A stretch of 64,000 nucleotides of DNA from Schleiferiaceae bacterium (lineage in GTDB: Bacteria; Bacteroidota; Bacteroidia; Flavobacteriales; Schleiferiaceae). Location of the stretch: contig OY970262.1 of the NCBI GenBank assembly GCA_963715655.1, positions 2,565,236 to 2,629,235 on the forward strand. The letters are read 5' to 3'. Position numbers and translations under genes: made by a program. The notes under the pieces were generated by a model. The model saw nothing but the letters and a program-made list of their open reading frames with translations. It made no database searches and was not told where the DNA came from. Each line of letters begins with the position of its first letter. Positions within the stretch are counted from its first letter, which is position 1. Shown piece after piece: positions 5,101 through 48,133 of the stretch.

Positions 5101-6606
5101 TGGACGACAATTAATTCTCTTTCATTACCTCCAACTACGGGCATTAAAAAATTTCAAGGATCTAATACTGGTGATAAAGAAAATTTAGCTGGAAATCAGT
5201 TTGACGCTACTGTCGTTAATGATATTGATGTTAATTTATCCCGAAATAATGTAATTTATGTTCATCATAATGAAACTTACCTAAGTAATCCTCAAAACTT
5301 AAAACCCTCAATTAGCAGACTTATAACTAGTTATGGATTTGACTTAGAGTTTAACGGATCTTGTCCTTCTATTGGCAGTACGGTATTAAACAAAACTGAA
5401 TTGGATGGGATTATTGAAGATAGAAACGCTCTAATAGCCTCATCTAAAGGGTTTTTTGATGAAAATGTCGACTTTGGAAATCATATCAATTTATTGGAAG
5501 CAATAGGCTTTTATGAATCGATAGTATTATACGGAGAGGAAGATTTCCCTGACCCTGTTTTTAATGATGATGGTGATCAATTTGCAAGCTTATATAATAA
5601 TATTTTAGGTAATGCACCTTGGATGTCTGACGAGGCTGCCGCTGCGCTAATTATGCAATTGGGTTTTTCTGATGTTATGTTAAACAACATATTGTTGGCA
5701 CACCCACATGTTTTGAGAAATCCTAAAATTATGGACCTCTTAGAGCTATACCGTGATGGCTTTCTTGCTTATATTGATGGAATTAATAATGCAAGGGCGA
5801 ATAATTATACAGATTATGAAAATAAAATGATGTTATTATCAAATTACTCTACCGACAAATTTAAAGCAGTAGAAGAAATGGCCTCATTATTGTTTTTTGA
5901 AGATATCGGCAATGGTCTTTCTGATTTAGATGAACTTATTAGCTTTTATTCTGCTTACGATGAACCTATTTATCAATACAGAAAAGCGACATTAGAACTA
6001 GTTACTGGCGATTATAGTAGCGCTCAAAATACTCTTACTAACTTGAGTGTTCAAAATAATTTTGAAGGAGATGATGAAAAGCTGTTTAATGATTTTAGTG
6101 AATTATTAGCAATTGCGTCAAATGCCAATGGTAATGTAGCAAATTATACTCCCACAGCGAGTGAGGAAATATTTTTAGCGCGGATTGCTGAGGAGCGAGA
6201 CCACCCTTTAACCGGTTTTGCTTATAGTTTTTCACTAACTAAAAAAATGGCGACAGCGACATTGCACGATGAAATACCTAATGATAGATATGATCCCGTC
6301 TATGATTATAACGTAACTTATAATAATAAAAAGAATATAGTTGAAGAGAAAGCGTTAGTCAATCAACAATTGATAAGTTCTTTCTATGTTTATCCCAACC
6401 CAAGTAGCTCTTATTTTAATGTTGTTTCGACAGATATATTGGAAGGGGAAGCAGTGTTATATGATGTGCGGGGAGCTAAATTAAGAACAGTAGTATGCAA
6501 GAATGGCTTAGCTATTTTGCCTTTAACCTCCTTACCATCTGGCATATATGTAATAAAACTTAGTAACAGAATACAGGTGCAAACTCAAAAAGTAATCATT
6601 GATTAA
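2119..6606 (+). CDS. Very large secreted protein with right-handed beta-helix (PbH1-like) repeats and a T9SS C-terminal sorting domain
   Basis: The start is taken at the internal Met (MKKSKFLIVIVLFNCLLSSIWAQ, a signal peptide); the tracked ORF begins at 2056. Repeated NNTF/NxxF beta-helix-like motifs are present. The C-terminus (YPNPSSSYFNVVSTDILEGEAVLYDVRGAKL ... GIYVIKL) matches the Por/T9SS CTD. Confidence 0.8.
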   Translation: MKKSKFLIVIVLFNCLLSSIWAQNAPGVQWTRFDWPRIEPTTNLPQSREKSGEDWWYDHENVFINGQHTGYIAGGFSEGLNRDVNANTYKSLQDELYTCGDRVTPTCTDFEVIGRTTDCTKSLMFEYELNGNMKWCRIYYDGEFTDVQQTSDGGFIAGGYTRNSHVNGNPNAFSNGQLPNQTRLLYNPINSSSNQFLTKNPNVAWNTGSSRVGIVKTDSEGKIQWMHNYGPLEIIGGVSNSIELTTMKAKWVSIVEINSDFWVVAGYEYRTSIGGPVIFGSFLLKLDSQGYVKEKMLLAPQIITVGSAFISLKDVKKGPGSNTLYVAGSFHEENVIPKSYVAKIDITGTPNILWENLFSAQTVRPDPVNPSNTPVYRNSIIHDIEVRGNGNILVPAIVNCYSGDCFSSNNSTNKAELEIHEITSGGSRSVLYNLGEVNAYDLKAGITNTSDGGFAVVSSKGQYDSNGNLILPAPNDPLILSLLPPNTPNCHEDYKAWMSDVFVAKFSSSNSLEWQKTYDSHPNERQSYPYDLKKQECVYEITEDQATGDLVISGNTSHNFDDAYLLKLTGCQNDLNSEPITSVGAAGDEIIISNNTTWNSNKIIRGLVRVQNILIIDGATIQFADKGQSGQESGILIEPGAKLIVRNGATLTSIAGCESSTWSGIKVASNNFIFQSNNNSGQLELDGTINRVTIENADNAIFMGDPYNISANYWSSFGGIVHANGVDFKNNLRDAAFNSFGSTNTNIYYTQYDSYFKNCKFTKTEKYKAGLKSGGSVTIWACHGIDFENCVWDFTGEDYDEQSVQAAIYTVDASFNVTGNVINETASSRFINCNYGIYSFKSWDFPSRVVINNTLFDNNKKGAFLYGASGYRIQNNTFKIPSLPKDEYDLINAYGVYNRSKSSIQFFNNNTFEGIGTGGFNAGVIVSQSYSLPNVIEQNTFKDLYMANESNMDNRSNDQALGVSGLTGLEYHCNYFDNNDINIYVHHQPYPGNSWTTINSLSLPPTTGIKKFQGSNTGDKENLAGNQFDATVVNDIDVNLSRNNVIYVHHNETYLSNPQNLKPSISRLITSYGFDLEFNGSCPSIGSTVLNKTELDGIIEDRNALIASSKGFFDENVDFGNHINLLEAIGFYESIVLYGEEDFPDPVFNDDGDQFASLYNNILGNAPWMSDEAAAALIMQLGFSDVMLNNILLAHPHVLRNPKIMDLLELYRDGFLAYIDGINNARANNYTDYENKMMLLSNYSTDKFKAVEEMASLLFFEDIGNGLSDLDELISFYSAYDEPIYQYRKATLELVTGDYSSAQNTLTNLSVQNNFEGDDEKLFNDFSELLAIASNANGNVANYTPTASEEIFLARIAEERDHPLTGFAYSFSLTKKMATATLHDEIPNDRYDPVYDYNVTYNNKKNIVEEKALVNQQLISSFYVYPNPSSSYFNVVSTDILEGEAVLYDVRGAKLRTVVCKNGLAILPLTSLPSGIYVIKLSNRIQVQTQKVIID

Positions 6607-8188
6607 TTTCTCCATTAATAGAATTTCAAATAATCTAACAAAAGGGCTGCTTTTAGTAGCTCTTTTGTTATTAAATTCTAACCCTATAATTGCACAAGCT
6701 AAAGGATTTAACAAGCTTTACGGAGAAGTGGTAGTAAGCAGAAGTGTTCAGCCTTTAGGTCACACTTTCTTCACATATAGTGAAATGTCTGATGCTTTAT
6801 GGAATTACATTAAACTAATCAAGATAGATGCGGGTGGGCTGGTAATAGATACTTTTAGTTTTCGATTGGATTCTGTTCATTTAGGCATTAGCAATCACGT
6901 TTCTTTAACTTCAACTTCAGACTCTGGATTAATTTGTTCTTTTTACTATTACAAGCCTTCAGGAATAAAGGTTAACGGATTATTGAAGCTTGATAATAAT
7001 TTAAATGTTAAGTGGCATAATAACGTCTTTGAGGATACAAATAGACGAGGTTTATATCAGATTACCGAAGTATCAGACAAAGGCTTTGTTTGTACTGGTT
7101 TTGCTTATTTACCCGCCAGTAATCGCTATGAAACGTTTTTAGTAAAAACAGATAGTCTAGGTAACAAAGAATGGGAAAAACGCTATGATACTAATGTGCC
7201 TCAATACAGTCAATATGGAATATTTGTGTATGAATGCCCCAATGCAAGTGGTTATTTAATAAGCAACAGGCACGAAATTTTAACCAGTGGTCCTAATAAT
7301 GATGTGAAGCTAATTCGTACCGATATACAAGGCAATGTGCTTTGGGAAAAGCGTTGGGGAAAACCGAATGGTAGCGAAGGGTACGGCAGTGTGGGATATG
7401 TAAATGATAGTACGTTTATACTGTATTATTCTGAATTTACTGATACCATTCTCTATAACTCTACCTCAGGAGTAGTTCTACCTTTTATACGATCAACCCC
7501 TACATTTATTTTAGTTAATGATAAAAATGGAGCTCAGCTCAATCGTAATCAACCTATGAGCCCTACAGTGCAGATGGTGTCTACTAATTCATATTTTCAA
7601 AATGGAAAATTGTATGGGGCGGGTTACTTTTTTAGTTTATTTGGATCTATGCTTTTAGAGGGTGGAGGTTATCAAGGGTTTATTATTAGCGTGGATGAAA
7701 ACTTAAATTTTAATTGGTATAGACATTACAATCCTAGAGGAGCCTTAGCAATTCCTGATGATGATAGTTTTTTAATAGATATTAAACCAACGTTGGATGG
7801 CGGCATTGTAGGGGCAGGTTATTCTTTCAAATCAGATACGGCAGGTACAGGTAGGTTTGGTTTTCATGGATGGATGTTTAAAACAGATAGTATTGGATGC
7901 CTAGAAAGTACTTGCGGAGGGGATATACATTTAAAAGAAGATTTAGTTGATGAAGGAAACGGTATTCAGGTTTATCCAAACCCGAGTAGCTCTTTCTTTA
8001 ATGTTTTGTCTACTGATATTTTGGAAGGGGAGGCGATGCTTTATGATATGCGTGGAGCAGCTTTAAGTTCAGCACCTGTAAAGGACGGTAAGGCGCGACT
8101 AATCGTTGGCAATTTGCCAAAAGGAATTTATGTTATACGCGTTTTTTCCAAGTATCGTTCATTCAGTAAGCAGGTAGAGATTGATTAA
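6599..8188 (+). CDS. T9SS-secreted protein, paralog copy A (inverted duplicate of 48357-49943)
   Basis: TTG start followed by a signal peptide (KGLLLVALLLLNSNPIIAQA). The C-terminal T9SS CTD reads VYPNPSSSFFNVLSTDILEGEAMLYDMRGAAL ... GIYVIRV. The first ~270 aa and last ~130 aa are near-identical to the protein encoded at 48357-49943. Confidence 0.8.
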   Translation: MINFSINRISNNLTKGLLLVALLLLNSNPIIAQAKGFNKLYGEVVVSRSVQPLGHTFFTYSEMSDALWNYIKLIKIDAGGLVIDTFSFRLDSVHLGISNHVSLTSTSDSGLICSFYYYKPSGIKVNGLLKLDNNLNVKWHNNVFEDTNRRGLYQITEVSDKGFVCTGFAYLPASNRYETFLVKTDSLGNKEWEKRYDTNVPQYSQYGIFVYECPNASGYLISNRHEILTSGPNNDVKLIRTDIQGNVLWEKRWGKPNGSEGYGSVGYVNDSTFILYYSEFTDTILYNSTSGVVLPFIRSTPTFILVNDKNGAQLNRNQPMSPTVQMVSTNSYFQNGKLYGAGYFFSLFGSMLLEGGGYQGFIISVDENLNFNWYRHYNPRGALAIPDDDSFLIDIKPTLDGGIVGAGYSFKSDTAGTGRFGFHGWMFKTDSIGCLESTCGGDIHLKEDLVDEGNGIQVYPNPSSSFFNVLSTDILEGEAMLYDMRGAALSSAPVKDGKARLIVGNLPKGIYVIRVFSKYRSFSKQVEID

Positions 8189-8233
8189 TATGTAGTCATA
8201 TTTTGAAGGTTATAATTTAGTATAAACACTAAT

Positions 8234-8485
8234 CTATAACTTGTGTAAAGGATGTATATTAATGAACAGAGAAAGAATGCCACTTACTACCTTTTGGTAA
8301 GTGGAATTAGGGTGAACTTCATGAGGTCTTCGAGAGAGTTCTCTAAGACCTCCATAACCTTCATTTTCAAATCGAGCTATGATTTTATAAGCCGTTGGCC
8401 TAGAAATTTCAAAGCTCCGGCAGAGTTCTGTAATGATGTAATTTCCCGTTCTCCATTCGCAGATAAATTCAATTTTTTGTTCCAT
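8234..8485 (-). pseudogene. Transposase N-terminal HTH fragment (IS481/IS3-like), truncated
   Basis: 83 aa, MEQKIEFICEWRTGNYIITELCRSFEISRPTAYKIIARFENEGYGGLRELSRRPH, resembles the N-terminal HTH of a DDE transposase. No catalytic domain follows. Confidence 0.45.
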
Positions 8486-8832
8486 AATCGTTGATTCTTT
8501 CCAAGGTACGCTAATCTGAATTTTGATTCAAATTGCAAGCTGAAAAGTGTAAACGATGTTTATATAACTATGTAAAGGATGTTTATATATCGTACCCTCC
8601 AAAAGAAAAACACAAACTCTGGGGATCAGAAAAGATGCACAAACTGTTGTATAAAATTCCCCACATTAGCCCATCCGAAATTGATAAAGAGAAGATATCA
8701 ATTTCCACCAGAGCTAATTAATTTCTACAGCTAGCGATAAAATTTAAAAATCCTCATATACAATAATTTACGATTTGGTAATTTTACCGTTTGTCGCAAT
8801 TCAAAAAAGAAAAGAAAAACTGAAATATATAT

Positions 8833-11106
8833 ATGTCATTAATAGACAAAGGACTTGAGCATGGGCACATCAAGTTTGATGAAGAAGAAAAATACATCAT
8901 CTATGTAGCTCCAGGCAAACGATACCGCTATACTGATCCCGAAGAACAAGTAAGAACTGAATCTTACTTATCCTTCATTTTCGAATATGGTTACAATCCT
9001 AAGCGCATGAGTCTTGAAGTAACTGTACCTAGAAGAACCCCTAGCGATTTAGCCGACATTGTCATTTTTGAAGATGATGATAAACTCACGCCCTACATAG
9101 TTGTAGAATGTAAAAAGCAAAAGATTTCAGAAGCAGAGTTCAACCAAGCCATTGAGCAAGGTTTCGGAAACGCTGTTTCGCTCAACGCACCTTTCATGCA
9201 GATTACATCAGGCATTAAAACAAATGCCTATGATGTCAAAAACTTTCCTCCACTCGAAAGGGTAAAGAACCTTATTGCAGATATTCCCCGATTTGGTCAA
9301 TCGGGTATTACCAAAGCAAAGTTTTACAAAGGCGCCATTGATGAAGACGGCAATCCTGCTAAAGACATTAAAGTTGTAGAGCAAAGCGACCTAACGAGAG
9401 TTTTTGAGCAAGCGCACCAAGCCCTTTGGGCAGGTGGAAAGCGGAATCCTTCCGAAGCATTTGATGAATTGGATAAACTCATTTTCTGTAAGATTTGGGA
9501 TGAACGTAAAGACCGCAAGCCAGGTCAGCCTTATGCCTTTCAAGAGTTTACAGGCGAACATCCGAACGAATTGCTTGAGAGAGTACAAGCCATTTACAGC
9601 GAAGGAAAAGAGAAAGACCCAGAAGTATTCAAAGAACCAATTCGCTTATCAGCTTCTGAACTTAAAACCATCGTGGGTTATTTATCAGAACTCAACCTCC
9701 ACGATACCGACCTTGACAGCAAAGGCCGAGCATTTGAAACTTTCTTAGGTTCATTCTTTCGTGGTGATTTTGGACAGTACTTTACGCCTCGAGAAGTGGT
9801 AGACTTTATTGTAAAAGTACTGCCCATTAATAACGATAGTTTAGTGCTTGATTCTTCTTGTGGAAGCGGTGGTTTCTTATTGTACGCCTTAGACAAGGTG
9901 AGAAAAAGAGCCGACCAGATGGCCGAAGAAGGCTATTTCAAAAAAGGCTCTACCAAGCACCGCGACTATTGGCACGATTTCGCAGAGCATAACCTCTACG
10001 GTATTGAAATTTCTGAAAGCATTGCCCGTACTGCCAAAATTAATATGATTATTCATGATGATGGCCACACCAATGTAATTGCTGTGGATGGCCTTAATCC
10101 TATTGAAGAAATTGCTCCAGTACCCAACGAAACCGAAAGAGAGAAAGAATGGCGTGAAAAGCTCAATGCCATTTCTATTCAGAAAGTTTCAGGAAACAAA
10201 GGATTTAAAGAAAACAACTTCGATTTCATCATCACCAATCCACCGTTTGGCTCTAGCATCAAACAAACCGAACAAGCCTATCTCAAAAACTACGGCTTGG
10301 GTATTAAAGATGTCAATTGGGTTGACCAACGATTAAAATCCAATTTCAAATTAGGAACACGCACCAGTCAAAGCACTGAAGTGCTTTTTATTGAGCAATG
10401 CCACCGTTTTTTAAAACCAGGCGGTGTGTTAGCAGTGGTTATTCCTGATGGTATTTTGACCAACTCAAGCTCGCAGTATGTGAGAGATTGGATTGAAGAA
10501 CACTACCGCATCATTTCTGTGGTTTCACTACCTCAAACAGCCTTCTCTGCCAATGGTGCAGGAGTTAAAAGCTCAGTTCTCTTCTTAATGAAGTTGGATG
10601 CCAAGCAAACCAAGAAAGTTCAAAACACCAAAGAGAAAATCCAAGATGATTTATTCTTTCAACCCCAATACGAAGCGGAGATTAAGCGGCTTGATAAAGA
10701 GAAAAAACGCATCATTAAAGAGCATGAAGGCTTTGACTACACCAGTATCAATTGGGAATTAGAAGACAATCTAAAAGCCTTAAATGGTGCATCTGCACCT
10801 GAGCAATATGACAAAGCCGCTCGCAAGCTCGCTGAGAAAAGCGAAGAATTTAAAGCATGGAAGTCTGACATTGGTCAACTCTACAATGAGCAGATCAATG
10901 AAGTAAAAGAAAATTTGCAAGACGAGTACCTCAAGCGCATTGGCGAAGAGCTGATAGACTATCCTATCTTAATGTTAATTGCTGAAAATATCGGTTATGA
11001 TACGGTTGGTCGTAAAACAGGGATCAATGAACTTGAGATAATTGCGCCAGAAATAGAAAGGTTTATTACTGACATTAAAACAGGGCAAGACCCTTTTTTC
11101 GTCTAA
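8833..11106 (+). CDS. Restriction-modification enzyme subunit: N-terminal HsdR_N-like PD-(D/E)xK nuclease domain fused to a gamma-class N6-adenine DNA methyltransferase
   Basis: The N-terminal region (DLADIVIFEDDDKLTPYIVVECKKQK) fits the D...ExK motif of the HsdR N-terminal nuclease family. A SAM-binding region (LDSSCGSGGFLLYA) and the catalytic NPPF motif (FDFIITNPPFGS) are present. 757 aa is larger than a canonical HsdM. Confidence 0.8.
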   Translation: MSLIDKGLEHGHIKFDEEEKYIIYVAPGKRYRYTDPEEQVRTESYLSFIFEYGYNPKRMSLEVTVPRRTPSDLADIVIFEDDDKLTPYIVVECKKQKISEAEFNQAIEQGFGNAVSLNAPFMQITSGIKTNAYDVKNFPPLERVKNLIADIPRFGQSGITKAKFYKGAIDEDGNPAKDIKVVEQSDLTRVFEQAHQALWAGGKRNPSEAFDELDKLIFCKIWDERKDRKPGQPYAFQEFTGEHPNELLERVQAIYSEGKEKDPEVFKEPIRLSASELKTIVGYLSELNLHDTDLDSKGRAFETFLGSFFRGDFGQYFTPREVVDFIVKVLPINNDSLVLDSSCGSGGFLLYALDKVRKRADQMAEEGYFKKGSTKHRDYWHDFAEHNLYGIEISESIARTAKINMIIHDDGHTNVIAVDGLNPIEEIAPVPNETEREKEWREKLNAISIQKVSGNKGFKENNFDFIITNPPFGSSIKQTEQAYLKNYGLGIKDVNWVDQRLKSNFKLGTRTSQSTEVLFIEQCHRFLKPGGVLAVVIPDGILTNSSSQYVRDWIEEHYRIISVVSLPQTAFSANGAGVKSSVLFLMKLDAKQTKKVQNTKEKIQDDLFFQPQYEAEIKRLDKEKKRIIKEHEGFDYTSINWELEDNLKALNGASAPEQYDKAARKLAEKSEEFKAWKSDIGQLYNEQINEVKENLQDEYLKRIGEELIDYPILMLIAENIGYDTVGRKTGINELEIIAPEIERFITDIKTGQDPFFV

Positions 11107-35141: not shown

Positions 35142-35924
35142 ATGAGTACTTCTAAAATTGGTCACAACATTAAAAAAATACGTGGTGTTAAAAACCTTAA
35201 TCAAAGCGACTTTGCGGAGCTTTTTGATTTGAAGCGTGCTAGTATTGGCGCTTACGAAGAAGGTAGAGCGGAACCTAAAGTTTCTACTATTATACAAATA
35301 GCCAATCATTTTGGCATTAGCGTAGATGAATTATTAACCAAAGCCCTTTCAGTAAACGATTTAATTCGCTTTGACATTATTAAAGAGGATTTAAAAGCAC
35401 AAACCAAGCATAACTTATTACCAACCAAAGATTGGGTGGAACTGATACCTATACCCTTGTTGACTACTGAGTATGAAAAGGATTATTTAGACGGAAAGTT
35501 GAAAACAGAAACACTGCCTTATCTGCAGCTACCCTTAGCGAAAGGTAGAATGTACTTAGCGTTTTTCATAAATGATAATGCCATGCAAATAGCGCATGGC
35601 GGTGTACAGCAAGGGGATATACTAGTTGGTTGCAAACCTGAAAAATTTGATTTGGCTAAAGCTGAAATTGGCATGATGTATATATTTCAACTAAAATCTG
35701 AAATTATATACCGAAAATTGAATGTAAAAAACCTAAGCTCAGTAACGCTGACTGCCGATAATCCAAATGTATATTCTAAAACTCTAAAACATTCGGAAAT
35801 AAAAGATATTTGGCAAGTATGCCTACGCGTTACCAATAATATTAGCAATCAAAACTTGATGGAAAATAAATTGATGCAGCTTGAGAAAGAAATTGAACAA
35901 CTAAAAAGGATGAGCCGCTCGTGA
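35142..35924 (+). CDS. XRE-family HTH regulator with C-terminal S24/LexA-like domain (CI-repressor-like architecture)
   Basis: N-terminal HTH_3 (IKKIRGVKNLNQSDFAELFDLKRASIGAYEEGRAEPKVSTIIQIANHFGISVDELL). The C-terminal segment is S24-like (AFFINDNAMQIAHGGVQQGDILVG ... IYRKL), but the usual catalytic Ser is not evident: NDNAM replaces GDSM. Confidence 0.7.
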   Translation: MSTSKIGHNIKKIRGVKNLNQSDFAELFDLKRASIGAYEEGRAEPKVSTIIQIANHFGISVDELLTKALSVNDLIRFDIIKEDLKAQTKHNLLPTKDWVELIPIPLLTTEYEKDYLDGKLKTETLPYLQLPLAKGRMYLAFFINDNAMQIAHGGVQQGDILVGCKPEKFDLAKAEIGMMYIFQLKSEIIYRKLNVKNLSSVTLTADNPNVYSKTLKHSEIKDIWQVCLRVTNNISNQNLMENKLMQLEKEIEQLKRMSRS

Positions 35925-36607
35925 AAAACACCTTAATAGAAATTGAGAGATTGCTTAGTGCCGCCTTTGCAGATTTTGTGCTGAGCAGAAAAGAACGTAG
36001 CGACTTGCGTGAAGCGTTAAGCTCCATAACGTTAGAGTTGCGCGAAAAACAATTGCTGTGGCACTTTTGCAAAAGCTTAGCAGAAAAATCTGAAACCTTA
36101 AGTACCTACTCATCCATAGAATGGATGTACGCTTGTGGCAAACTATTGCAACAAACGGCAGAAACTCCCGATGCTGAAACGCAGGTTTATTTTTCACCGG
36201 GCACCGCTTGCCAAACGGCTATATGCAACGCCATCCGCTTTGCGAAAAGCAAAATAGACATTTGCGTTTTTACCATTAGTGACAATACAATTACCGATGA
36301 ACTTTTGCAAGCACACCGCTTAGGCAAGCATATTCGCATAATAACGGATAATGATAAAACCGAAGATCACGGATCTGATATTGATTTATTAGCGAATGCT
36401 GGTTTACAGGTAAGGGAAGACCGCACGGATGCGCACATGCATCATAAATTTGCCTTATTTGATAACGAAAAGTTACTTACCGGCAGTTATAATTGGACCA
36501 GATCTGCCATGACACATAATTTGGAAAATATTCTCCTTACAGATGATGAAAATGCCATAGGCCCATTTAAAAAGGAATTTAAACGTTTATGGGAAATGTT
36601 GAAGTAG
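35921..36607 (+). CDS. Phospholipase D-family (HKD) nuclease, Nuc-like, single HKD motif
   Basis: HKD signature HMHHKFALFDNEKLLTGSYNWTRSA. The GTG start overlaps the stop of the upstream regulator (cgtga). Confidence 0.7.
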   Translation: MKNTLIEIERLLSAAFADFVLSRKERSDLREALSSITLELREKQLLWHFCKSLAEKSETLSTYSSIEWMYACGKLLQQTAETPDAETQVYFSPGTACQTAICNAIRFAKSKIDICVFTISDNTITDELLQAHRLGKHIRIITDNDKTEDHGSDIDLLANAGLQVREDRTDAHMHHKFALFDNEKLLTGSYNWTRSAMTHNLENILLTDDENAIGPFKKEFKRLWEMLK

Positions 36608-38723: not shown

Positions 38724-41351
38724 ATGAAAATAAATGATTTACGCGTAATGCGTGGGCCTAATTACTGGTCAATAAGACGACACAAACTGGTGGTAATGGT
38801 ACTTGATTTAGAGGAACTTGAAGAACTTCCTACCAATAAAATTGATGGTTTTTACGAACGTTTAAAAGAAATGTTTCCCGGTATGTATGAGCACCGTTGC
38901 TCGGTAGGTGCGCCCGGTGGATTTTTTGAACGCGTACAAGAAGGCACTTGGATTGGGCACGTTATTGAACATATCGCCTTAGAAATTCAGAGTTTGGCAG
39001 GTATGGAAACCGGTTTTGGCCGTACCCGTGGCACCGGAAATCATGGTGAATACAACGTAGTATTTTCTTATGCCGAAGAAAATGTGGGACTTTTTGCTGC
39101 AAAAGCATCCGTATATATTGCACGTGCTTTAATTGATAATAAGCCCTATAATTTAGAAGATGATATTCAGCACATGCGCGAACTGCGTGAGAAAGAACGC
39201 CTTGGCCCAAGCACCGGTTCTATTGTAGAAGAAGCTGCTAGCAGAGGTATTCCTTGGTTGCGCTTAAACCGATATAGCCTTGTGCAACTAGGCTATGGCG
39301 CAAACCAAAAACGCATACAGGCAACGGTGGCAAGTTCCACAGGAAGCATAGCAGTAGAATTAGCGTGCGACAAGGAAGACACTAAGGAACTTTTAGAAGC
39401 CAACGGAATTCCCGTTCCACGCGGACGTATTGTGCGCAGTGAAGAAGGATTAATGGAAGCTATTGATCGAATTGGTTATCCGGTGGTAACCAAACCTATT
39501 GACGGCAATCATGGTCGTGGCGCCACTATAAATATTACTAATGATGCCGATGCCAAAGTAGCCTATACAGTAGCTAAAGAACACAGTCGCTCCATTATTG
39601 TAGAACGTTATATTTCAGGTTTTGACCACCGATTGCTCGTAATTGACAATCAATTTGTGGCTGCGGCCAGACGTACGCCTGCTAGTGTTACGGGCGATGG
39701 CACCTCCAACATACAACAATTGATTGATAAAGTAAACGCAGACCCAAGGCGTGGTTATGGACACGAAAAAGTGCTGACAGCCATTACCGTAGATCATCAC
39801 ACCGAATTAATTTTAAAAGAACAAAATCTTACGCTTGACTCAGTTATCCCGAAAGGAGAATTATTATTATTAAAACCAACCGCCAACCTTAGCACCGGTG
39901 GTACTGCGGAGGATATTACCGATGCCGTGCATCCGTATAACATCTTTATGGCCGAACGTATTTCTAAAATTATAGGTTTAGATATTTGCGGTATCGACAT
40001 TATTGCGAAAGATGTAAGCACGCCCATTGATGAGAATGGTGGTGCTGTAATTGAAGTAAATGCCGGCCCCGGTTTTAGAATGCACCTTGCTCCTACGCAC
40101 GGTTTAGCGCGCAATGTAGCGGGTAATGTTGTTGATATGCTTTTCCCGCAAGGCACACCATTTAAAATTCCAATTATTGCTGTTACGGGCACTAATGGAA
40201 AAACTACCACTACACGATTAATGGCGCATATAGTGCGTAACATGGGCTATAAAGTTGGCTTTACCACTTCAGACGGTGTATATATTCAAAACCGGATGTT
40301 GCAAAAAGGCGACTGCACCGGCCCAGTAAGCGCTGAATTTGTGCTACGCGACCCAACGGTAAATTTTGCTGTATTAGAAACAGCTAGAGGAGGAATTTTA
40401 CGTGCCGGTCTTGGTTTCGGAAACTGTGACATTGCCATTATTACGAACATCGCTGCTGATCATTTAGGTTTAAAGGGTATTAACACGTTAGAGGATTTAG
40501 CGCGCGTAAAATCTATTGTTGCTGAAAGCGTGCTACCCGAAGGTTACGCTATTTTAAATGCTGACGATGATTTGGTGTACGATATGCGTAAAAACGTAAA
40601 CAGCAATGTGGCATTCTTTAGTTTAAAAGAGGATAATCCGCGTATTATAGCGCATTGCAGCAAAGGTGGCTTGGCCGCGATTTATGAAAATGGGTACATT
40701 ACTATATGCAAAGGCGAATGGAAAATGAGGATAGAAAAAGCCGTAAATATTCCCATTACGTTTAGAGGAAAAGCGGAGTTTAATATTGCCAATACGCTAC
40801 CCGCTGTGCTTGCGAGTTTTATACGTGGGTTTAAAATTGCGGATATCAAACAAGCGTTGGAAACCTTTGTACCATCGCCAGCGCAAACGCCCGGACGTAT
40901 GAATATGTTCCGTTTTAAAGATTTTGATGTGATGTTGGATTACGCCCACAACCCGGCTGGCTTTACCGCCATTGGTAACTTTTTAGCACAAGTAGATGCC
41001 ACTGAAAAAGTGGGTATTATTGCTGGTGTAGGCGATAGACGCGATGAGGACATTCTGGAACTTGGTGCTTTAAGCGCAAAAATGTTTGACAAGATTATTA
41101 TCCGTCAAGATAAAAACCTGCGTGGCCGCACCGAGGAGGAATTAATTGGCCTAATGAAGCAAGGTATTTTAAATGAAGATCCTAAAAAGGAAATTTTGAT
41201 AATACCCAAAGAAAGTGAAGCGATACGCTATGCGGTAAGCAACGCCAAAAAAGATTCTTTTATAGTGATTTGCAGCGATGTGGTACCCGATGCCTTAGAA
41301 TTAGTAAGACAACTTAATGAGGAGGAAGATTTGGCTTCGGCTAAGGTTTAA
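38724..41351 (+). CDS. cphA: Cyanophycin synthetase (ATP-grasp plus Mur-ligase domains)
   Basis: 875 aa. N-terminal MKINDLRVMRGPNYWS, an ATP-grasp region, then a Mur-ligase P-loop (IIAVTGTNGKTTTTRL). Confidence 0.9.
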   Translation: MKINDLRVMRGPNYWSIRRHKLVVMVLDLEELEELPTNKIDGFYERLKEMFPGMYEHRCSVGAPGGFFERVQEGTWIGHVIEHIALEIQSLAGMETGFGRTRGTGNHGEYNVVFSYAEENVGLFAAKASVYIARALIDNKPYNLEDDIQHMRELREKERLGPSTGSIVEEAASRGIPWLRLNRYSLVQLGYGANQKRIQATVASSTGSIAVELACDKEDTKELLEANGIPVPRGRIVRSEEGLMEAIDRIGYPVVTKPIDGNHGRGATINITNDADAKVAYTVAKEHSRSIIVERYISGFDHRLLVIDNQFVAAARRTPASVTGDGTSNIQQLIDKVNADPRRGYGHEKVLTAITVDHHTELILKEQNLTLDSVIPKGELLLLKPTANLSTGGTAEDITDAVHPYNIFMAERISKIIGLDICGIDIIAKDVSTPIDENGGAVIEVNAGPGFRMHLAPTHGLARNVAGNVVDMLFPQGTPFKIPIIAVTGTNGKTTTTRLMAHIVRNMGYKVGFTTSDGVYIQNRMLQKGDCTGPVSAEFVLRDPTVNFAVLETARGGILRAGLGFGNCDIAIITNIAADHLGLKGINTLEDLARVKSIVAESVLPEGYAILNADDDLVYDMRKNVNSNVAFFSLKEDNPRIIAHCSKGGLAAIYENGYITICKGEWKMRIEKAVNIPITFRGKAEFNIANTLPAVLASFIRGFKIADIKQALETFVPSPAQTPGRMNMFRFKDFDVMLDYAHNPAGFTAIGNFLAQVDATEKVGIIAGVGDRRDEDILELGALSAKMFDKIIIRQDKNLRGRTEEELIGLMKQGILNEDPKKEILIIPKESEAIRYAVSNAKKDSFIVICSDVVPDALELVRQLNEEEDLASAKV

Positions 41352-41406
41352 AAATTGAGTGTTTGCGTGTTTCTAATTTGTGCTTCAAGAATAAAAAAAT
41401 GTTATG

Positions 41407-41440
41407 GCAGTTGAATACAAATCTGCGCTAGTTGAAATAT
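41407..41440. repeat. Short interspersed repeat copy (ggcagttgaatacaaatctgcgctagttga) on the left flank of the low-GC cassette
   Basis: It shares the core caaatctgcgc(t/c)ag with three further copies at 43447-43618. Confidence 0.6.
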
Positions 41441-41474
41441 GTAAGACTATTAAATAAATGAAAATAGGTACGAA

Positions 41475-42284
41475 ATGAATAAAGAGGTTAGAGAAGGTTT
41501 TATACCAGATTGGGCTATGGGAACACAGGGTGCTATGATTAATATTGTCAAAAATATTAATTCTGAAACAGCAACAACTTGGCCAACCATACGTGGTTTT
41601 AAATTTAGCCCCTATCGTTATAATGATTTTATGTTGCTCGTCTTACAGGATGAACCAAATCCTCAAGGAGCGATGATTGGATCAGGGGCTTTTTTAACAT
41701 TGCCCGAAAGTATTACTACATCTGTTCCGGTAAACATCGAAACATTTAGAAATATATATCAAACTGTTGTAGCTGCATTTAATTTGACTACTAGTGATTT
41801 TATTTATTTTATACCTATTAAAGAGGGTGGAAATTTGAAGGAAAACTATTCAAAATTTTCTGAGGAAGAAGTCTTCTTTTGGGAATATCAACATAGTTTC
41901 AATATTAAAAACTATCGCGATATTGATAACCATACAACACCTTCACCCACACCAAAACCCACCGCAGCACCAATTACAATCGTGAATAATCATTATCACC
42001 TAAGCGATAATTCAAGAATTAATAATAATTCAACTGACAATTCTGTAAATAAGCAGACAATCAGTTTTAAAAGTTCAGTTTATGAAGATTTAAACAAAAG
42101 GGCTGAAGAAATAAATAGCATATCAGAGCAGAAGGAAGTTAAAAAAGCGATATCGGAAATGGAGCAAAGTGAAAACATTCAATCCTTCAAATCTGCATAT
42201 AATAGCTTTATAGCGAAAGCTGCTAATCACATGACACTGTTTTCTCCATTTATTCCTGCACTTACAGAGATGTTAATCAAATAA
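41475..42284 (+). CDS. Hypothetical protein (269 aa) with S/T/P-rich linker; partner gene of the SIR2-like protein
   Basis: No recognisable motif. Contains a low-complexity linker HTTPSPTPKPTAAP. AT-rich codon usage differs from neighbouring genes. Confidence 0.45.
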   Translation: MNKEVREGFIPDWAMGTQGAMINIVKNINSETATTWPTIRGFKFSPYRYNDFMLLVLQDEPNPQGAMIGSGAFLTLPESITTSVPVNIETFRNIYQTVVAAFNLTTSDFIYFIPIKEGGNLKENYSKFSEEEVFFWEYQHSFNIKNYRDIDNHTTPSPTPKPTAAPITIVNNHYHLSDNSRINNNSTDNSVNKQTISFKSSVYEDLNKRAEEINSISEQKEVKKAISEMEQSENIQSFKSAYNSFIAKAANHMTLFSPFIPALTEMLIK

Positions 42285-42334
42285 AGTTTCATTCCAATTA
42301 CTTGAAGGTTACCATTTACAACAATAATTGAAGC

Positions 42335-43411
42335 ATGCAGGAGGACACACACAGAATTCTTTACATCTTAGGAGCTGGTGCTAGTGCTAATGCGATACCT
42401 CCTGTAAATGGACTTAACCACGCCATAATTGTTTGGGGCAATGCAATGAAGGAATATACTAGCGTATTGGAATTACCTCAAAAGCACAGTCTCAGCAGAC
42501 TCTCTAAACTGTTTTTAAGATTTGGACAAGAAGCAAAGACATCTTTTTCTGTTGATACACTTGCTAGAAAATATTACCTTAGAAAAGACTTCAAGACATT
42601 AGGAAAGTTAAAAACAGTGATAGCATTGACGATCCAATTAGAAAGTTTGAGTAATCCTAAATTGTTGAAACCTTTTCTCCCGTATCGAGAGCAGGTACTC
42701 ACTGATTTACGATATGAAGCCTTTTTGGCCAGCCTTATTGACGAGCATACTAAGGCTATACCTGATTCGATTAGAATCATTAGTTGGAACTATGATTTAC
42801 AACTAACTCAAGCTTATCTTCAAATACTTAACAAGTTTAACGCTGATATGAGTAAGTCATATTACGAGGAGGAGGTTGATGGATATACACATCTAACAAA
42901 ATTAAATGGATCTATCTACAACGATAGCACCTTCAGTGATTCCTATTCAGACCTCAGTTTAATTGAACATCATAAGCATAAGTTGTCTAAAAATGCACTT
43001 TTAGTGCATGGATTAATAGAGTTTATTGAGGACAGAAAAAGCAATTGGTATAAATTGACAAATATTGGTAGTATTAAATTTGCGTGGGAAGAGAATCGTG
43101 ATTTTTCAGCGCTCGAAGCTTTTAGTCCAACAATTATTGTTGTGATTGGATATAGTTTCCCAACGTACAATAGAGATGTTGACAAGAATATTCTTAATAC
43201 ATTAAATGGCACAAAGGAAAGCAAAGTGTATGTCCAATGTAATTTTAGAACTAGTAAAGGTAAGTTGGTTAGAAATTTTGATGGAGTAAAATCAAATTTA
43301 TTAGGATTAGGGGTATCTGCTGAGAAAATTGTGGAAGTAGCAGAGTCTAATGAATTTAGAATACCCTTTGAATTGAATAAGCCATTAGACCCGTTCGGAT
43401 TTGTGATTTAA
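42335..43411 (+). CDS. SIR2-like (SIR2_2/DHS-like NAD-binding) domain protein, candidate defence NADase
   Basis: N-terminal ILYILGAGASANAIP (GAGxS), a central WNYDLQLTQAY (compare the TNYD motif of ThsA-type SIR2), and a later IVVIGYSFPTYNRD (compare VGFSFTD). The position equivalent to the catalytic His appears to be Asn (KLNGS). Confidence 0.5.
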   Translation: MQEDTHRILYILGAGASANAIPPVNGLNHAIIVWGNAMKEYTSVLELPQKHSLSRLSKLFLRFGQEAKTSFSVDTLARKYYLRKDFKTLGKLKTVIALTIQLESLSNPKLLKPFLPYREQVLTDLRYEAFLASLIDEHTKAIPDSIRIISWNYDLQLTQAYLQILNKFNADMSKSYYEEEVDGYTHLTKLNGSIYNDSTFSDSYSDLSLIEHHKHKLSKNALLVHGLIEFIEDRKSNWYKLTNIGSIKFAWEENRDFSALEAFSPTIIVVIGYSFPTYNRDVDKNILNTLNGTKESKVYVQCNFRTSKGKLVRNFDGVKSNLLGLGVSAEKIVEVAESNEFRIPFELNKPLDPFGFVI

Positions 43412-43446
43412 ATTCAATGAATGTAATTGCCATAATAGTATCAATT

Positions 43447-43618
43447 CTCACCCGCTAGCGCGGATTTGTAATCCGTGCTTTTAAAATTCTTTAATTTAGA
43501 TTAAAAATGATTTGACACTATTGGCAGTTTTAGCCCTCACTAGCGCAGGTTTATAATTTGTTCTTCACAAAAGTTAAAAAAATAGTGGCCATAGATTGCA
43601 AATCTGCGCCAGCTGACG
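43447..43618. repeat. Three more copies of the short interspersed repeat on the right flank of the cassette (two inverted, one direct)
   Basis: ctcacccgctagcgcggatttgtaatccg (43447-43475), ggcagttttagccctcactagcgcaggtttataatttg (43523-43560) and ccatagattgcaaatctgcgccagctgacg (43589-43618). Confidence 0.6.
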
Positions 43619-43671
43619 ACAAAGAATGAGATAATTGTACTAACTTTATAAAGCTTTACTTTAGCATTATT

Positions 43672-43911
43672 ATGGAAACAACAAATTTGAGAAGAAGAAT
43701 CTTAGCCTTTGTGCAGCACGCTGACGTAGAGCACCTTAAACGCTTAGAAGCGTTTATAATAAGAGAACCATCTGATCTATCCATTTTAACTGAGAAACAA
43801 AAAGTTGAGCTTGATGAGCAGGAGGCATTTTATGCATCAGGAAATGGTGAGGTGTACGCATGGAATGATATTAAGCAGGAACTGATTGATGAGCATGGCC
43901 TATCAACTTGA
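43672..43911 (+). CDS. Type II antitoxin (addiction-module component)
   Basis: 79 aa acidic protein whose 3' end overlaps the following RelE/ParE-like gene by 26 nt. Confidence 0.55.
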   Translation: METTNLRRRILAFVQHADVEHLKRLEAFIIREPSDLSILTEKQKVELDEQEAFYASGNGEVYAWNDIKQELIDEHGLST

Positions 43912-44182
43912 ACTTAGGGAAAATGCCCGTACAGGTGTAATTAATGGATTTAAATGGTATGAGACAAAAAGCGAAGGGCTTGGAGCAAGGTTTGTCCAGC
44001 AAGTAGAAGATGTAATTGAGTACATAGGTAAAGATCCCTTGCACTTTCAGGTTAGGTATAAAGATTATAGAGAAGCACTTTTAAAAAACTTTCCCTACGT
44101 TGTAATATATCAAGTTATAGGAAACCTTGTCATCGTTTCATCGGTATATCCGGCACGCGCTAATCCTGAAAAAAAGATATAG
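43886..44182 (+). CDS. RelE/ParE-family type II toxin
   Basis: 98 aa with ... FPYVVIYQVIGNLVIVSSVYPARANPEKK, a typical ParE/RelE C-terminus. Confidence 0.7.
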   Translation: MMSMAYQLELRENARTGVINGFKWYETKSEGLGARFVQQVEDVIEYIGKDPLHFQVRYKDYREALLKNFPYVVIYQVIGNLVIVSSVYPARANPEKKI

Positions 44183-44728
44183 GTTGAGAAAGGCTCTCTA
44201 GCTCACCCGCTTTTTTCAAAACCTTCCCACTCTAAATATACATGTAATAAATACTTGTAAACCAAATACTTGAATTTTGCTAATCTTTACCTAATACATA
44301 CCAAGTAACCTGAGTTCGATTAAAACCAAAATAAATTAAGCTGATAATCAATAGTTCCAAAACAACAAGCTAGCCCCTAAATTCCTACCGCTAAAGCAGC
44401 ACTTACGGCCTAATGAGGACTTTAGCTACGCGTGTAGTTAAATCAAATTCTTTTGAATCTTATTTAACCCTTTACGACAGTGCCCAAGAAGGCTCATTAG
44501 TCAATAATAAATCTTTAAGCTGTTTGCCTTTTAACCTGTAATAGAAAAAACAGAATAAAATTTTCTAAACTATTATTTGTCGCTGAATAGTAGTACAAAC
44601 CAGCTTTAAACTATTGTTGTGAAAAACTATAGATTGAAATAGCTTTGCCAGTGCAAAAGCATAGTATTTGCTAACCACGTAATACCTTGCCGTTGCACGT
44701 TTATAAGACTTCATAAAAATTCCACCGT

Positions 44729-46933: not shown

Positions 46934-48133
46934 TTAGTATAAAAACCCAAAAAGCCAAAGGGGAATTGTATTTCCAAAGCCTATTTCAATATCATCTTTA
47001 AGTATATAGGCTTGCTCAACACCTTTTATTTGTGTGCTGGTTTTCCCTTTCCCTCCTACTTCAAAGGTGTAGGTGTTATCTACCAAAAAATCCCCGGTTT
47101 TGGGTAGCGATATTTCTATATGCTTATTTATTAGTTGGTTCAGCAAAAAAGTTTCTCTTACAGAACCAACGTTGGGTAATTCCTTTAAGGCGTAAGCCAA
47201 ATTAGTATTTTCAAGATATACTTTATCCGGCTTTTGTAATAAGGATGAACCTTTGCCGGCAGCATGTAAAAGGTTTATTAACCGCGCTTCATCCAAATGC
47301 TTAAACCAAGCATATACAGAATCTCGGCTTACATCTAATTTCCTAGATAAGGCTGCAATATTTGGTTTAAACGGGGCTGAGTCTGCCAATAGTCCAAGTA
47401 GTCTTTTCACTTTATAAGCGGTGCTAGGCGTGTACAATTTTATATAAGCCAAATCAGAATCTAAAACCGTATTTATTACTTGCGATAGGATAAGGCCCAC
47501 TTCACTTTGAGGAATTTCTTGAATTATAGGTAAATAACCACTTTTAAGATAATGCTTAAAATGTGGTAAAGGGTGAAATTTGTCTAAAACAAGTTGAGCG
47601 TACTTCCTGTGATTACTTAGTACATCTGTAAAAGTAAAAATTGGAAAATCCTCTTTTGTGGCAAACCATAAATACTCTCGGAAAGATAACCCTGGTAAGT
47701 TATACGTTATTACCCTTCTACTTAAATCAGCCTCTCCTCGGTATATTTCTAACGCTGATGAGGATGAAAAAACCACTTTCATACTTGGAAAGCCGTCAAA
47801 AATATTCTTTAGTTCTCGCGACCAATTAGGATACTTATGTACTTCATCAATGTATAAATACTTACCGCCATTTTTGTAAAATTCATCCACGGTTTCAAAA
47901 AGCGTATGGTTATAAAACCAATGAAAGTCTGCAGTTACGTAGAGTGCTTCCTCATTTTCAGCACCATGTGCTTTTAGTAAATGTTGTAACAATAAAGTTG
48001 TTTTGCCCGCACCCCTAGGCCCTTTAATAGCAAGCATACGCTGCTCCCAATTTACCTGCTGATAAAATTGGCGTACGTAATTCAACTGCACATGTTTCAA
48101 TATACTGTCGTGATAAGAACGCAAAGCTTCCAT
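46934..48133 (-). CDS. AAA-superfamily ATPase with C-terminal DUF4143-type domain
   Basis: Walker A GPRGAGKTTLL and Walker B YLYIDEVH. ~400 aa, the architecture common to AAA_14/DUF4143 proteins. Confidence 0.75.
   Translation of the reverse strand: MEALRSYHDSILKHVQLNYVRQFYQQVNWEQRMLAIKGPRGAGKTTLLLQHLLKAHGAENEEALYVTADFHWFYNHTLFETVDEFYKNGGKYLYIDEVHKYPNWSRELKNIFDGFPSMKVVFSSSSALEIYRGEADLSRRVITYNLPGLSFREYLWFATKEDFPIFTFTDVLSNHRKYAQLVLDKFHPLPHFKHYLKSGYLPIIQEIPQSEVGLILSQVINTVLDSDLAYIKLYTPSTAYKVKRLLGLLADSAPFKPNIAALSRKLDVSRDSVYAWFKHLDEARLINLLHAAGKGSSLLQKPDKVYLENTNLAYALKELPNVGSVRETFLLNQLINKHIEISLPKTGDFLVDNTYTFEVGGKGKTSTQIKGVEQAYILKDDIEIGFGNTIPLWLFGFLY

Follow-up and report, generated by a model that had tools for sequence, protein, structure and literature searches.

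The gene at positions 42335-43411 (plus strand) encodes a stand-alone SIR2-fold protein of 358 aa, which is probably a single-gene effector of phage conflict and not one component of a pair. It belongs to a large family without name or annotation, composed of stand-alone SIR2 proteins with Asn-Gly in place of His-Gly. As an uncharacterised stand-alone protein of this NG type, it is a plausible candidate for a single-gene defence factor or NADase. The reading as a whole, that of a NAD+-consuming single-gene conflict effector with a presumed NADase activity and defence role, is the one towards which we cautiously lean.

The gene lies in the window (the whole stretch of 64,000 nucleotides analysed here), in which the cyanophycin genes are followed by a small accessory islet consisting of orf269, the SIR2-like gene and a ParE pair and interspersed with locus-specific repeats of about 68 nt. 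The cphA gene (38724-41351) is directly upstream of orf269 (41475-42284, plus strand), which encodes a protein of unknown function of 269 aa. The SIR2-like gene is followed by a candidate antitoxin (43672-43911, plus strand; 79 aa) and a ParE/RelE-type toxin (43886-44182, plus strand; 98 aa), whose likely start is an in-frame ATG at 43889. These four ORFs occupy the places right after cphA at which the original prediction had put them. The toxin-antitoxin pair that it announced behind the cassette is also borne out, as the toxin reaches 24.9 bits for PF05016 ParE_toxin, above the cut-off of 23 (the match to TIGR02385 is weak), and the upstream 79-aa ORF overlaps the start of the toxin gene. 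This ORF matches no known family and is assigned as the antitoxin by position, size and overlap alone. The pair constitutes a third independent module of the islet.

The block was further described as low in GC content. The drop is real but mild (34.0% in 41475-43411 against a window mean of 37.5%, the 7.6th percentile among equal-sized windows), which makes it a weak argument. Among 44 genes, orf269 has the third lowest GC content (z -1.7) and the SIR2-like gene the seventh lowest (z -1.1), the latter with an unremarkable GC3. The visible drop after cphA arises mostly because cphA itself, with 42.8%, ranks among the genes of highest GC content in the window. The suggested defence-islet setting agrees with the presence of defence-candidate genes close by, namely a DrmC-like PLD nuclease, accompanied by an HTH partner, on the upstream side and a PDC-S01 ATPase on the downstream side. 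No integrase or transposase was found in the neighbourhood, and the region of 41.2-44.8 kb contains no tRNA, Rfam family, excess of sigma-70 promoters or canonical terminator. The nearest cphA orthologues do not exceed 84% identity; the genes downstream of them differ from those of the window and among themselves, and none of these neighbours is present in the window. The 3' end of cphA is a synteny breakpoint in relatives, and it gave no matches in the metagenome scan.

The decisive evidence for the nature of the 358-aa protein comes from the fold search, which reveals a Rossmann-type SIR2 (DHS-like) fold spanning the whole protein, and the SIR2 assignment first made from motifs is thereby confirmed. 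The protein contains GAGAS (residues 13-17), WNYD (151-154), LNG (190-192), WE and IGYSFPxxNxxxD (271-283), and of these GAGAS, WNYD, LNG and IGYSFPxxNxxxD are invariant throughout the family, which keeps the Trp-Glu as well. GAGxS is the NAD-binding loop that follows beta-1, and N-x-D is the catalytic motif. The HMM check with PF13289, which had been proposed earlier, gave no match at E<=1 for the protein itself, which is thus below the Pfam gathering cut-off. Sequence searches of Pfam, NCBIfam, PADLOC and PDB returned nothing significant for either orf269 or the SIR2-like protein, and no defence model matches the latter.

In a profile alignment, N152, D154 and N191 correspond to N163, D165 and H212 of PsSIR2, the putative catalytic residues of that enzyme. 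N191-G192 therefore occupies the position of H212-G213, and the catalytic His of an HG motif is absent. The presence of Asn at this position, suspected from the start, is a property of the family: Asn is found in 251 of 252 relatives. All 252 keep G13, A14, G15, S17, D74, R126, N152, Y153, D154, G192, G272-S274, P276, N279 and D283. The Zn-binding Cys4 module of sirtuin deacylases (PF02146 type) is absent; the protein has a single Cys, and its small domain is all-helical. The helical insertion carries the conserved D74 and R126-Y127. A 42-nt in-frame segment (42659-42700, plus strand), which codes for 14 aa forming the lowest-confidence loop of the model, is missing in the public contig L001, which is identical in all other respects.

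The family comprises 1,977 clusters at 50% identity (E<=1e-30), mostly from Bacteroidota, and all members are single-domain proteins of 320-410 aa. Among 69 relatives, PF13289 matches 21 at E<=0.1 (best 1.4e-5), PADLOC Aga_SIR2 matches 19 (best 4e-9) and the PADLOC SIR2 model 18 (best 3.6e-10), while NCBIfam matches none; one relative has a precomputed PF13289 match. The family is patchily distributed, and its closest homologues are found at different loci. The nearest of them, with 71% identity, lies at another locus adjoining tRNA-Met, without orf269, and the small gene pair beside it is unrelated to the toxin-antitoxin pair of the window. No conserved neighbour exists across 80 genomic loci. 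The contexts are variable and, on a rough judgement of the neighbours, enriched in genes of restriction-modification, mobile elements and phages: among the immediate neighbours are type I and IIG restriction-modification genes, SLFN/AlbA_2 (PDC-S50), TIR, integrases and IS200 transposases, with defence genes making up about 10-15% of them by a rough estimate. Four Flavobacteriaceae genera share a common synteny around the family gene, which looks more vertical than is typical of defence genes. Family members also occur on 15 viral contigs, and those on real phage contigs could have a phage-side function. A tblastn search with the SIR2-like protein against GenBank phages or PLSDB plasmids gave no match.

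The neighbouring orf269 had been regarded as a partner without a recognisable domain. It indeed has no Pfam domain, but its C-terminus matches phrog_16834. The protein consists of a unique N-terminal part of about 170 aa, a P/T-rich linker and a conserved C-terminal module of about 95 aa (NSTDNS ... AANHMTLFSPFIPALTEML), and this module alone is shared with genes of mobile elements. The structural model has a pLDDT of 56.6, with residues 198-269 alone being reliable, and a BFVD fold search with this low-confidence model was uninformative. A PDB profile search with orf269 found nothing, and tblastn with orf269 and its full-length relative P0130 against GenBank phages or PLSDB plasmids gave no match.

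The original prediction treated the two genes as one cassette. A two-gene system, in which orf269 would be a sensor or regulator and the SIR2-like protein the effector, is very unlikely. The genes are on the same strand, separated by 50 nt with no predicted terminator between them, and they may be co-transcribed; both are accessory, and both lie between the two direct repeats described below. Contig L001 also has the two genes, but it represents this very locus, with 100% identity, and hence not an independent occurrence. At none of 80 genomic and 15 viral loci with a gene of the SIR2-like family do the flanks contain a relative of orf269. The 71% homologue lacks such a partner, and relatives of orf269 occur on their own in contexts that are ICE-like, integrase-bearing or viral, with no SIR2 gene. 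The notion of a two-gene cassette thus fails, and orf269 is probably an accessory gene in its own right, derived from a mobile element or phage, which among the loci compared is adjacent to the SIR2-like gene in this genome only.

The repeats around the block are present as first described, with one copy before and three after it, two of them inverted. The core CAAATCTGCGCYAG is located at 41418(+), 43455(-), 43540(-) and 43599(+), and it has five matches at <=2 mismatches against 0.64 expected, a number reached in none of 100 shuffles. The fifth match, a weak one, falls within a coding region. No further copy in the 64 kb was found with a profile built from the four arms. Two segments, 41368-41435 and 43548-43616, form direct repeats of about 68 nt, about 78% identical, with a local alignment score of 69 (shuffles: 19 +/- 3.6, maximum 37). 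Repeat A (41368-41435, plus strand), between the cphA stop and orf269, has a right arm with the core TACAAATCTGCGCTAG (41416-41431) and a degenerate left arm. Repeat B (43534-43618, plus strand) combines an inverted arm (43534-43565, minus strand) with a direct arm (43587-43618), about 40 nt apart. Another inverted copy of the arm, CTAGCGCGGATTTGTAATCCGTGC (43449-43479, minus strand), forms a hairpin followed by TTTT, 38 nt past the stop codon of the SIR2-like gene; it may act as a terminator, and a generic terminator scan did not call it.

That these repeats are recombination sites or scars delimiting a mobile cassette, and not ordinary REP-like, terminator-like or promoter-like intergenic elements, appears improbable. 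In its favour, the two direct repeats bracket exactly orf269 and the SIR2-like gene, all four arms fall within 2.2 kb while the other 62 kb of the window have none, and the 3' end of cphA is the synteny breakpoint mentioned above. Nevertheless, the degree of identity between the repeats does not indicate a fresh duplication, no recombinase is close by, and copies are absent from 110 other loci and from the metagenome contigs searched. Each of the elements is located about 100 nt upstream of an operon start or just past a stop codon, and one arm has a hairpin with a T-run, which fits terminator or regulatory elements. An integron-type gene cassette was considered and rejected, as there is no IntI integrase in the neighbourhood and no repeat copy after the toxin-antitoxin pair; inverted arms do exist in the repeats, and attC core sites were judged by eye only.

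Regarding function, the SIR2-like protein would consume NAD+, most likely as a NAD+ glycohydrolase, with a pocket gated by the helical small domain of about 110 aa, an arrangement shared with PsSIR2 and ThsA. The enzyme might be switched on by a phage cue or by oligomerisation, with abortive infection as the outcome; this activation step is speculative, since the protein is short and stands alone without an obvious sensor. It would then represent a single-gene conflict system comparable to AbiH, equipped with the NG-type active site that works in Avs5. In a bolder and doubtful extension, the whole family of about 2,000 clusters might form an antiphage (abortive-infection) system that is encoded by a single gene and has so far escaped recognition in Bacteroidota and their phages, a minimal Asn-Gly SIR2 NADase whose helical insertion (D74, R126-Y127) would serve as a built-in sensor or gate, with no partner or fused sensor.

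Two other functions have to be weighed against a NAD+-consuming effector. In SirTM, an amide residue in place of the His resulted in an ADP-ribosyltransferase, and so a plain NADase activity is not assured for the SIR2-like protein. The enzyme could modify a protein or nucleic-acid target instead of depleting bulk NAD+, and it might then also serve phages. We consider this unlikely, as Avs5, the one NG-type SIR2 studied, is a NADase, and neither a macrodomain nor a conserved target-like neighbour accompanies the family. Less likely again is a dead or housekeeping binder of NAD or nucleotides, uninvolved in phage conflict, in an islet that is simply ordinary variable chromosome. The lack of any matching defence model, the synteny kept in four Flavobacteriaceae genera, the only mildly deviant GC content and the neighbourhood without integrase or transposase are compatible with such a role. 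On the other hand, about 20 invariant polar or Gly residues at canonical active-site positions in 252 sequences argue for catalysis, the distribution is patchy with the closest homologues at different loci, and the genes often lie in restriction-modification, integrase, tRNA or phage contexts.

NADases with a SIR2 domain make up a major class among the immune effectors of bacteria and have human relatives (FAM118A/B), and the immune repertoire of Bacteroidota is poorly charted. Nearly all SIR2 NADases studied depend on a sensor, either fused or supplied by a partner, and on a catalytic His. The SIR2-like protein belongs to a coherent large family overlooked by current Pfam, NCBIfam and PADLOC models. 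If active, the family would carry the recently described NG-type chemistry beyond Avs5. It would then also serve as a minimal model for the silencing and activation of a SIR2 module on its own, and give Bacteroidota one more candidate for defence. Should the protein turn out to be an ADP-ribosyltransferase or to act on the phage side, this would be informative as well.

In agreement with the original prediction, no named SIR2 system matches the protein, which lacks SLOG/TIR, HerA, STAND, Argonaute and a long sensor domain. Unlike ThsA of Thoeris, it has neither a SLOG domain nor a ThsB/TIR partner, and no PADLOC ThsA or ThsB model matches it; in ThsA, replacement of the catalytic His H152 by Ala abolishes NADase activity. 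DSR1 and DSR2 are proteins of about 1,000 aa with an N-terminal SIR2 domain and a long C-terminal sensor, in contrast to the 358 aa of the window protein and the 320-410 aa of its family. SPARSA is an Argonaute-associated SIR2 system, whereas the window protein has no APAZ/Argonaute. The class M sirtuins (SirTM) are tied to an operon with a macrodomain and GcvH-L/LplA and ADP-ribosylate a specific protein; no such operon exists here. In SIR2-HerA (Nezha), PsSIR2 (8w9l) has H212 where the window family has N191, and it needs its HerA partner, which is found neither in the window nor at 95 related loci.

Parallels exist with AbiH and Avs5. AbiH (PF14253), a lactococcal abortive-infection protein of unknown mechanism, is likewise the product of a single gene, about 350 aa long, predicted to have a SIR2-like fold and lacking a partner; mobile elements often carry it. 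The window protein, in contrast, is matched neither by PF14253 nor by PADLOC AbiH, and its relatives show one weak Pfam match among 69 (E 0.008) and none of 69 in PADLOC. AbiH proteins begin with a GNGFD-type motif, not GAGxS. Avs5 provides the parallel for the active site, as the NG motif is common to its NG-motif clade and to the window family. PaAvs5-1 has NG in place of HG, requires this Asn and hydrolyses NAD+, with N, D and a downstream E being essential. Since a working NG variant has already been published for the SIR2 domains of Avs5, the Asn substitution is not a new chemistry. Avs5 is, however, a SIR2-STAND fusion of about 770-830 aa, in which phage is sensed by the NTPase and sensor parts, whereas the window protein is a SIR2 module of 358 aa alone, with no STAND fused or nearby.

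Direct searches of Pfam, NCBIfam, PADLOC and the PDB with the SIR2-like protein, the 358-aa product of an ORF called at 42335-43411 on the cphA strand, were negative. A word-indexed search found 217 homologues, and an exhaustive profile search returned 3,748 cluster representatives at E<=1e-3 (1,977 at E<=1e-30), all of them single-domain proteins of 320-410 aa. Their named sources are chiefly Bacteroidota, with some Spirochaetia, Campylobacterales, Ignavibacteria and deltaproteobacterial MAGs. PF13289, the model proposed as a check of the SIR2 assignment, did not match the protein itself but matched 21 of 69 aligned relatives weakly; the PADLOC models Aga_SIR2 (19/69, best 4e-9) and SIR2 (18/69, best 3.6e-10) also matched relatives. 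An AlphaFold2 model built from the relatives' alignment is confident (pLDDT 83.7, pTM 0.87) and has the canonical SIR2 order, in which strands at residues 8-12, 146-150, 187-189 and 267-271 lead into GAGAS, WNYD, NG and GYSF, respectively. The matches and the model bear out the SIR2-like assignment: the protein has a SIR2 fold. Its small domain is a ~110-aa helical insertion (residues 24-135), and since it has a single Cys, it lacks the sirtuin Zn module. A 42-nt in-frame segment (42659-42700; 14 aa, KLLKPFLPYREQVL) encodes the loop in which the model is least confident. The public contig L001, otherwise 100% identical, lacks it, as do more distant relatives; the discrepancy with L001 stems either from strain polymorphism or from the assemblies.

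In a profile-to-PDB alignment with PsSIR2, the SIR2 protein of the SIR2-HerA (Nezha) system (structure 8w9l), WNYD falls opposite TNYD and LNG opposite LHG. Counted along the chain, the PsSIR2 residues so aligned are N163, D165 and H212, the putative catalytic residues according to the authors of the structure. The original prediction that Asn occupies the position of the catalytic His was confirmed, as N191 is aligned to H212 and Asn is present in 251 of 252 family members. Invariant throughout the 252 are G13, A14, G15, S17, D74, R126, N152, Y153, D154, G192, G272, Y273, S274, P276, N279 and D283. The Asn is a fixed, strongly constrained signature of the family and not the decay of a single copy. 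The substitution is not without published precedent: in PaAvs5-1, and likewise in about half of Avs5 homologues, NG replaces HG. PaAvs5-1 hydrolyses NAD+ on infection, with N110, D112 and E202 being essential, and its Asn is needed for defence, as protection is lost when it is changed to Ala or Gln and only partly kept with His. The SIR2-like family has an analogous series, consisting of N152, D154, N191 and the near-invariant E252.

Neighbour clustering across 80 genomic loci revealed no recurrent partner of SIR2-like genes. Type I restriction-modification operons enclose the gene at 5-6 loci, and nearby genes encode type IIG methylase-nucleases (3 loci), AlbA_2/PDC-S50 (4), TIR (2), integrases (3) and IS200 transposases (3). 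Family members are also found on 15 IMG/VR viral contigs (L092-L106), which are real phage genomes, often near genes for terminase, DnaB, ParB-like nuclease and DNA methyltransferase; the family is therefore also phage-borne. The lack of a recurrent partner, together with the mobile and phage contexts, indicates that the SIR2-like gene is a stand-alone, horizontally mobile module. Four Flavobacteriaceae genera (L038, L042, L051 and L082; ~7200-10300) have in common the order aldo-keto reductase, SDR, SIR2-like and AlbA_2/DUF5929 (PADLOC PDC-S50), a conserved SIR2-like and Schlafen/AlbA_2 pairing. In two Cryomorphaceae/Owenweeksia genomes (L004 and L005, ~2800-9000), relatives with 32-35% identity lie directly downstream of a gene for a 1,656-aa DUF3686 ATPase.

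The proposed pairing with orf269, the 269-aa ORF called at 41475-42284 on the same strand, did not stand. No orf269 relative was present in the flanks of the family members at the 80 genomic and 15 viral loci, and a SIR2 gene was never seen beside orf269 relatives in the contexts examined. Only contig L001 repeats the pair, and it represents this very locus, with 100% identity bar the 42-nt indel; the closest SIR2-like homologue (71% identity, L002) lies between pth and tRNA-Met (L002 4032-4105, minus strand) among unrelated neighbours. The adjacency is local. This position next to a tRNA gene (L002 2838-4105) is a classic integration hotspot. A 294-aa, membrane-anchored-looking gene comes next, as does a pair of small, unrelated genes.

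There is a single exact public copy of orf269, which comes from the same genome. Its 17 distant relatives share only the C-terminal ~95 residues, which carry the motif Y-x-L-x-x-N-x-R-x-N-x-NSTDNS ... AANHMTLFSPFIPALTEML. This module matches the uncharacterised phrog_16834 (E 3.6e-6; 9e-35 for a full-length relative). A helical bundle at residues 198-269 is the only confident part of the orf269 model, and fold and PDB searches gave nothing beyond it. Relatives adjoin an AlbA_2 gene in an ICE-like element, an integrase and a primase, and an integrase in Terribacillus, and they occur on four viral contigs. In contig L091 (1685-7789), an orf269-family gene directly follows a bacterial ubiquitin-like E1/E2/JAB operon, which points to a family that moves together with conflict systems. 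The members of this operon are YukD-like Ubl, ThiF E1, JAB, FHA, Prok-RING and UQ_con E2.

The anatomy of the islet had been described accurately. Behind cphA (38724-41351), orf269 and the SIR2-like gene are followed on the same strand by overlapping 79-aa (43672-43911) and 98-aa (43886-44182) ORFs. Of the predicted ParE/RelE toxin-antitoxin pair, the toxin was retained, as the 98-aa product passes the Pfam ParE_toxin cut-off (24.9 bits, cut-off 23) and weakly matches RelE_StbE; the 79-aa ORF has no family match and is a candidate antitoxin by position. The iaaA-cphB-cphA block is retained in relatives, and synteny comparison showed that genes 3' of cphA vary between them, making this a variable spot. 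No empty-site allele was found after cphA; the closest named cphA orthologue, from a Crocinitomicaceae genome, is 84% identical. The surroundings of the cph cluster hold further defence-type genes, namely an HTH and DrmC-like PLD nuclease pair just upstream (35142-36607) and a 399-aa AAA_14 ATPase at 46934-48133 on the minus strand (PADLOC PDC-S01, a candidate single-gene system, 5e-28). The pair, located in a low-GC stretch, consists of an HTH_3 gene (260 aa; PADLOC control-protein/HTH_VI-like, 1e-10) and a PLDc_2 nuclease gene (228 aa; DrmC-like, 2.8e-13) overlapping by 4 nt, and could form a small defence module in its own right.

A search with the core CAAATCTGCGCYAG recovered the four expected repeat copies, one before and three after the block, two of them inverted, at 41418(+), 43455(-), 43540(-) and 43599(+). 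The core gave 5 matches with <=2 mismatches against 0.64 expected, and a four-arm profile run over the 64 kb recovered just these four sites. Two ~68-nt direct repeats, A (41368-41435, left arm decayed) and B (43548-43616, an inverted arm pair ~40 nt apart), enclose orf269 and the SIR2-like gene and align with a score of 69 (shuffles 19 +/- 3.6, maximum 37). They may be recombination scars; no recombinase, tRNA or Rfam element was found nearby, and further copies were absent from the other loci compared and from metagenome contigs. They may instead be REP-, terminator- or promoter-like elements; the third arm (43449-43479), just past the SIR2-like stop codon, is a hairpin followed by TTTT. The 546 nt after the ParE gene (44183-44728), with no ORF >=50 aa, tRNA or Rfam match, hold a 9-nt match, CTCACCCGC, to sequence beside this arm.

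The block is indeed low in GC, 34.0% against a window mean of 37.5%, but this is only the 7.6th percentile among equal-sized windows, and the visible drop results mainly from contrast with cphA (42.8%). Among the 44 genes, orf269 has the third-lowest GC (z -1.7); the SIR2-like gene comes seventh (z -1.1), and its GC3 is ordinary. The compositional signal is genuine yet weak, and GC alone is no evidence that the block is foreign; the emphasis first placed on low GC was not upheld.

We think that the SIR2-like protein is an NAD+-consuming effector, which would use an NG-type SIR2 site. The helical insertion probably holds it inactive, by analogy with PsSIR2 and ThsA, in which a small domain blocks the NAD+ pocket. 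The invariant residues D74 and R126-Y127 are possible binding sites for a trigger or second substrate, and the enzyme may be switched on by a process that includes oligomerisation, as in the filaments of Avs5, KomC and FAM118B; the outcome would be NAD+ depletion leading to abortive infection. The main alternative is a phage-side role or ADP-ribosyltransferase activity, the latter being that of SirTM, an enzyme with Gln in place of His. The invariance of the active site across the family makes a dead protein, or one with a housekeeping role, unlikely.

Immune effectors of the SIR2 type, Abi proteins that are SIR2-like and encoded by one gene (AbiH), and the NG motif are already known, and the effector proposed here therefore adds no new kind of system. 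The apparent novelty lies in the family of NG-type SIR2 proteins, which is stand-alone, very large and unmodelled.
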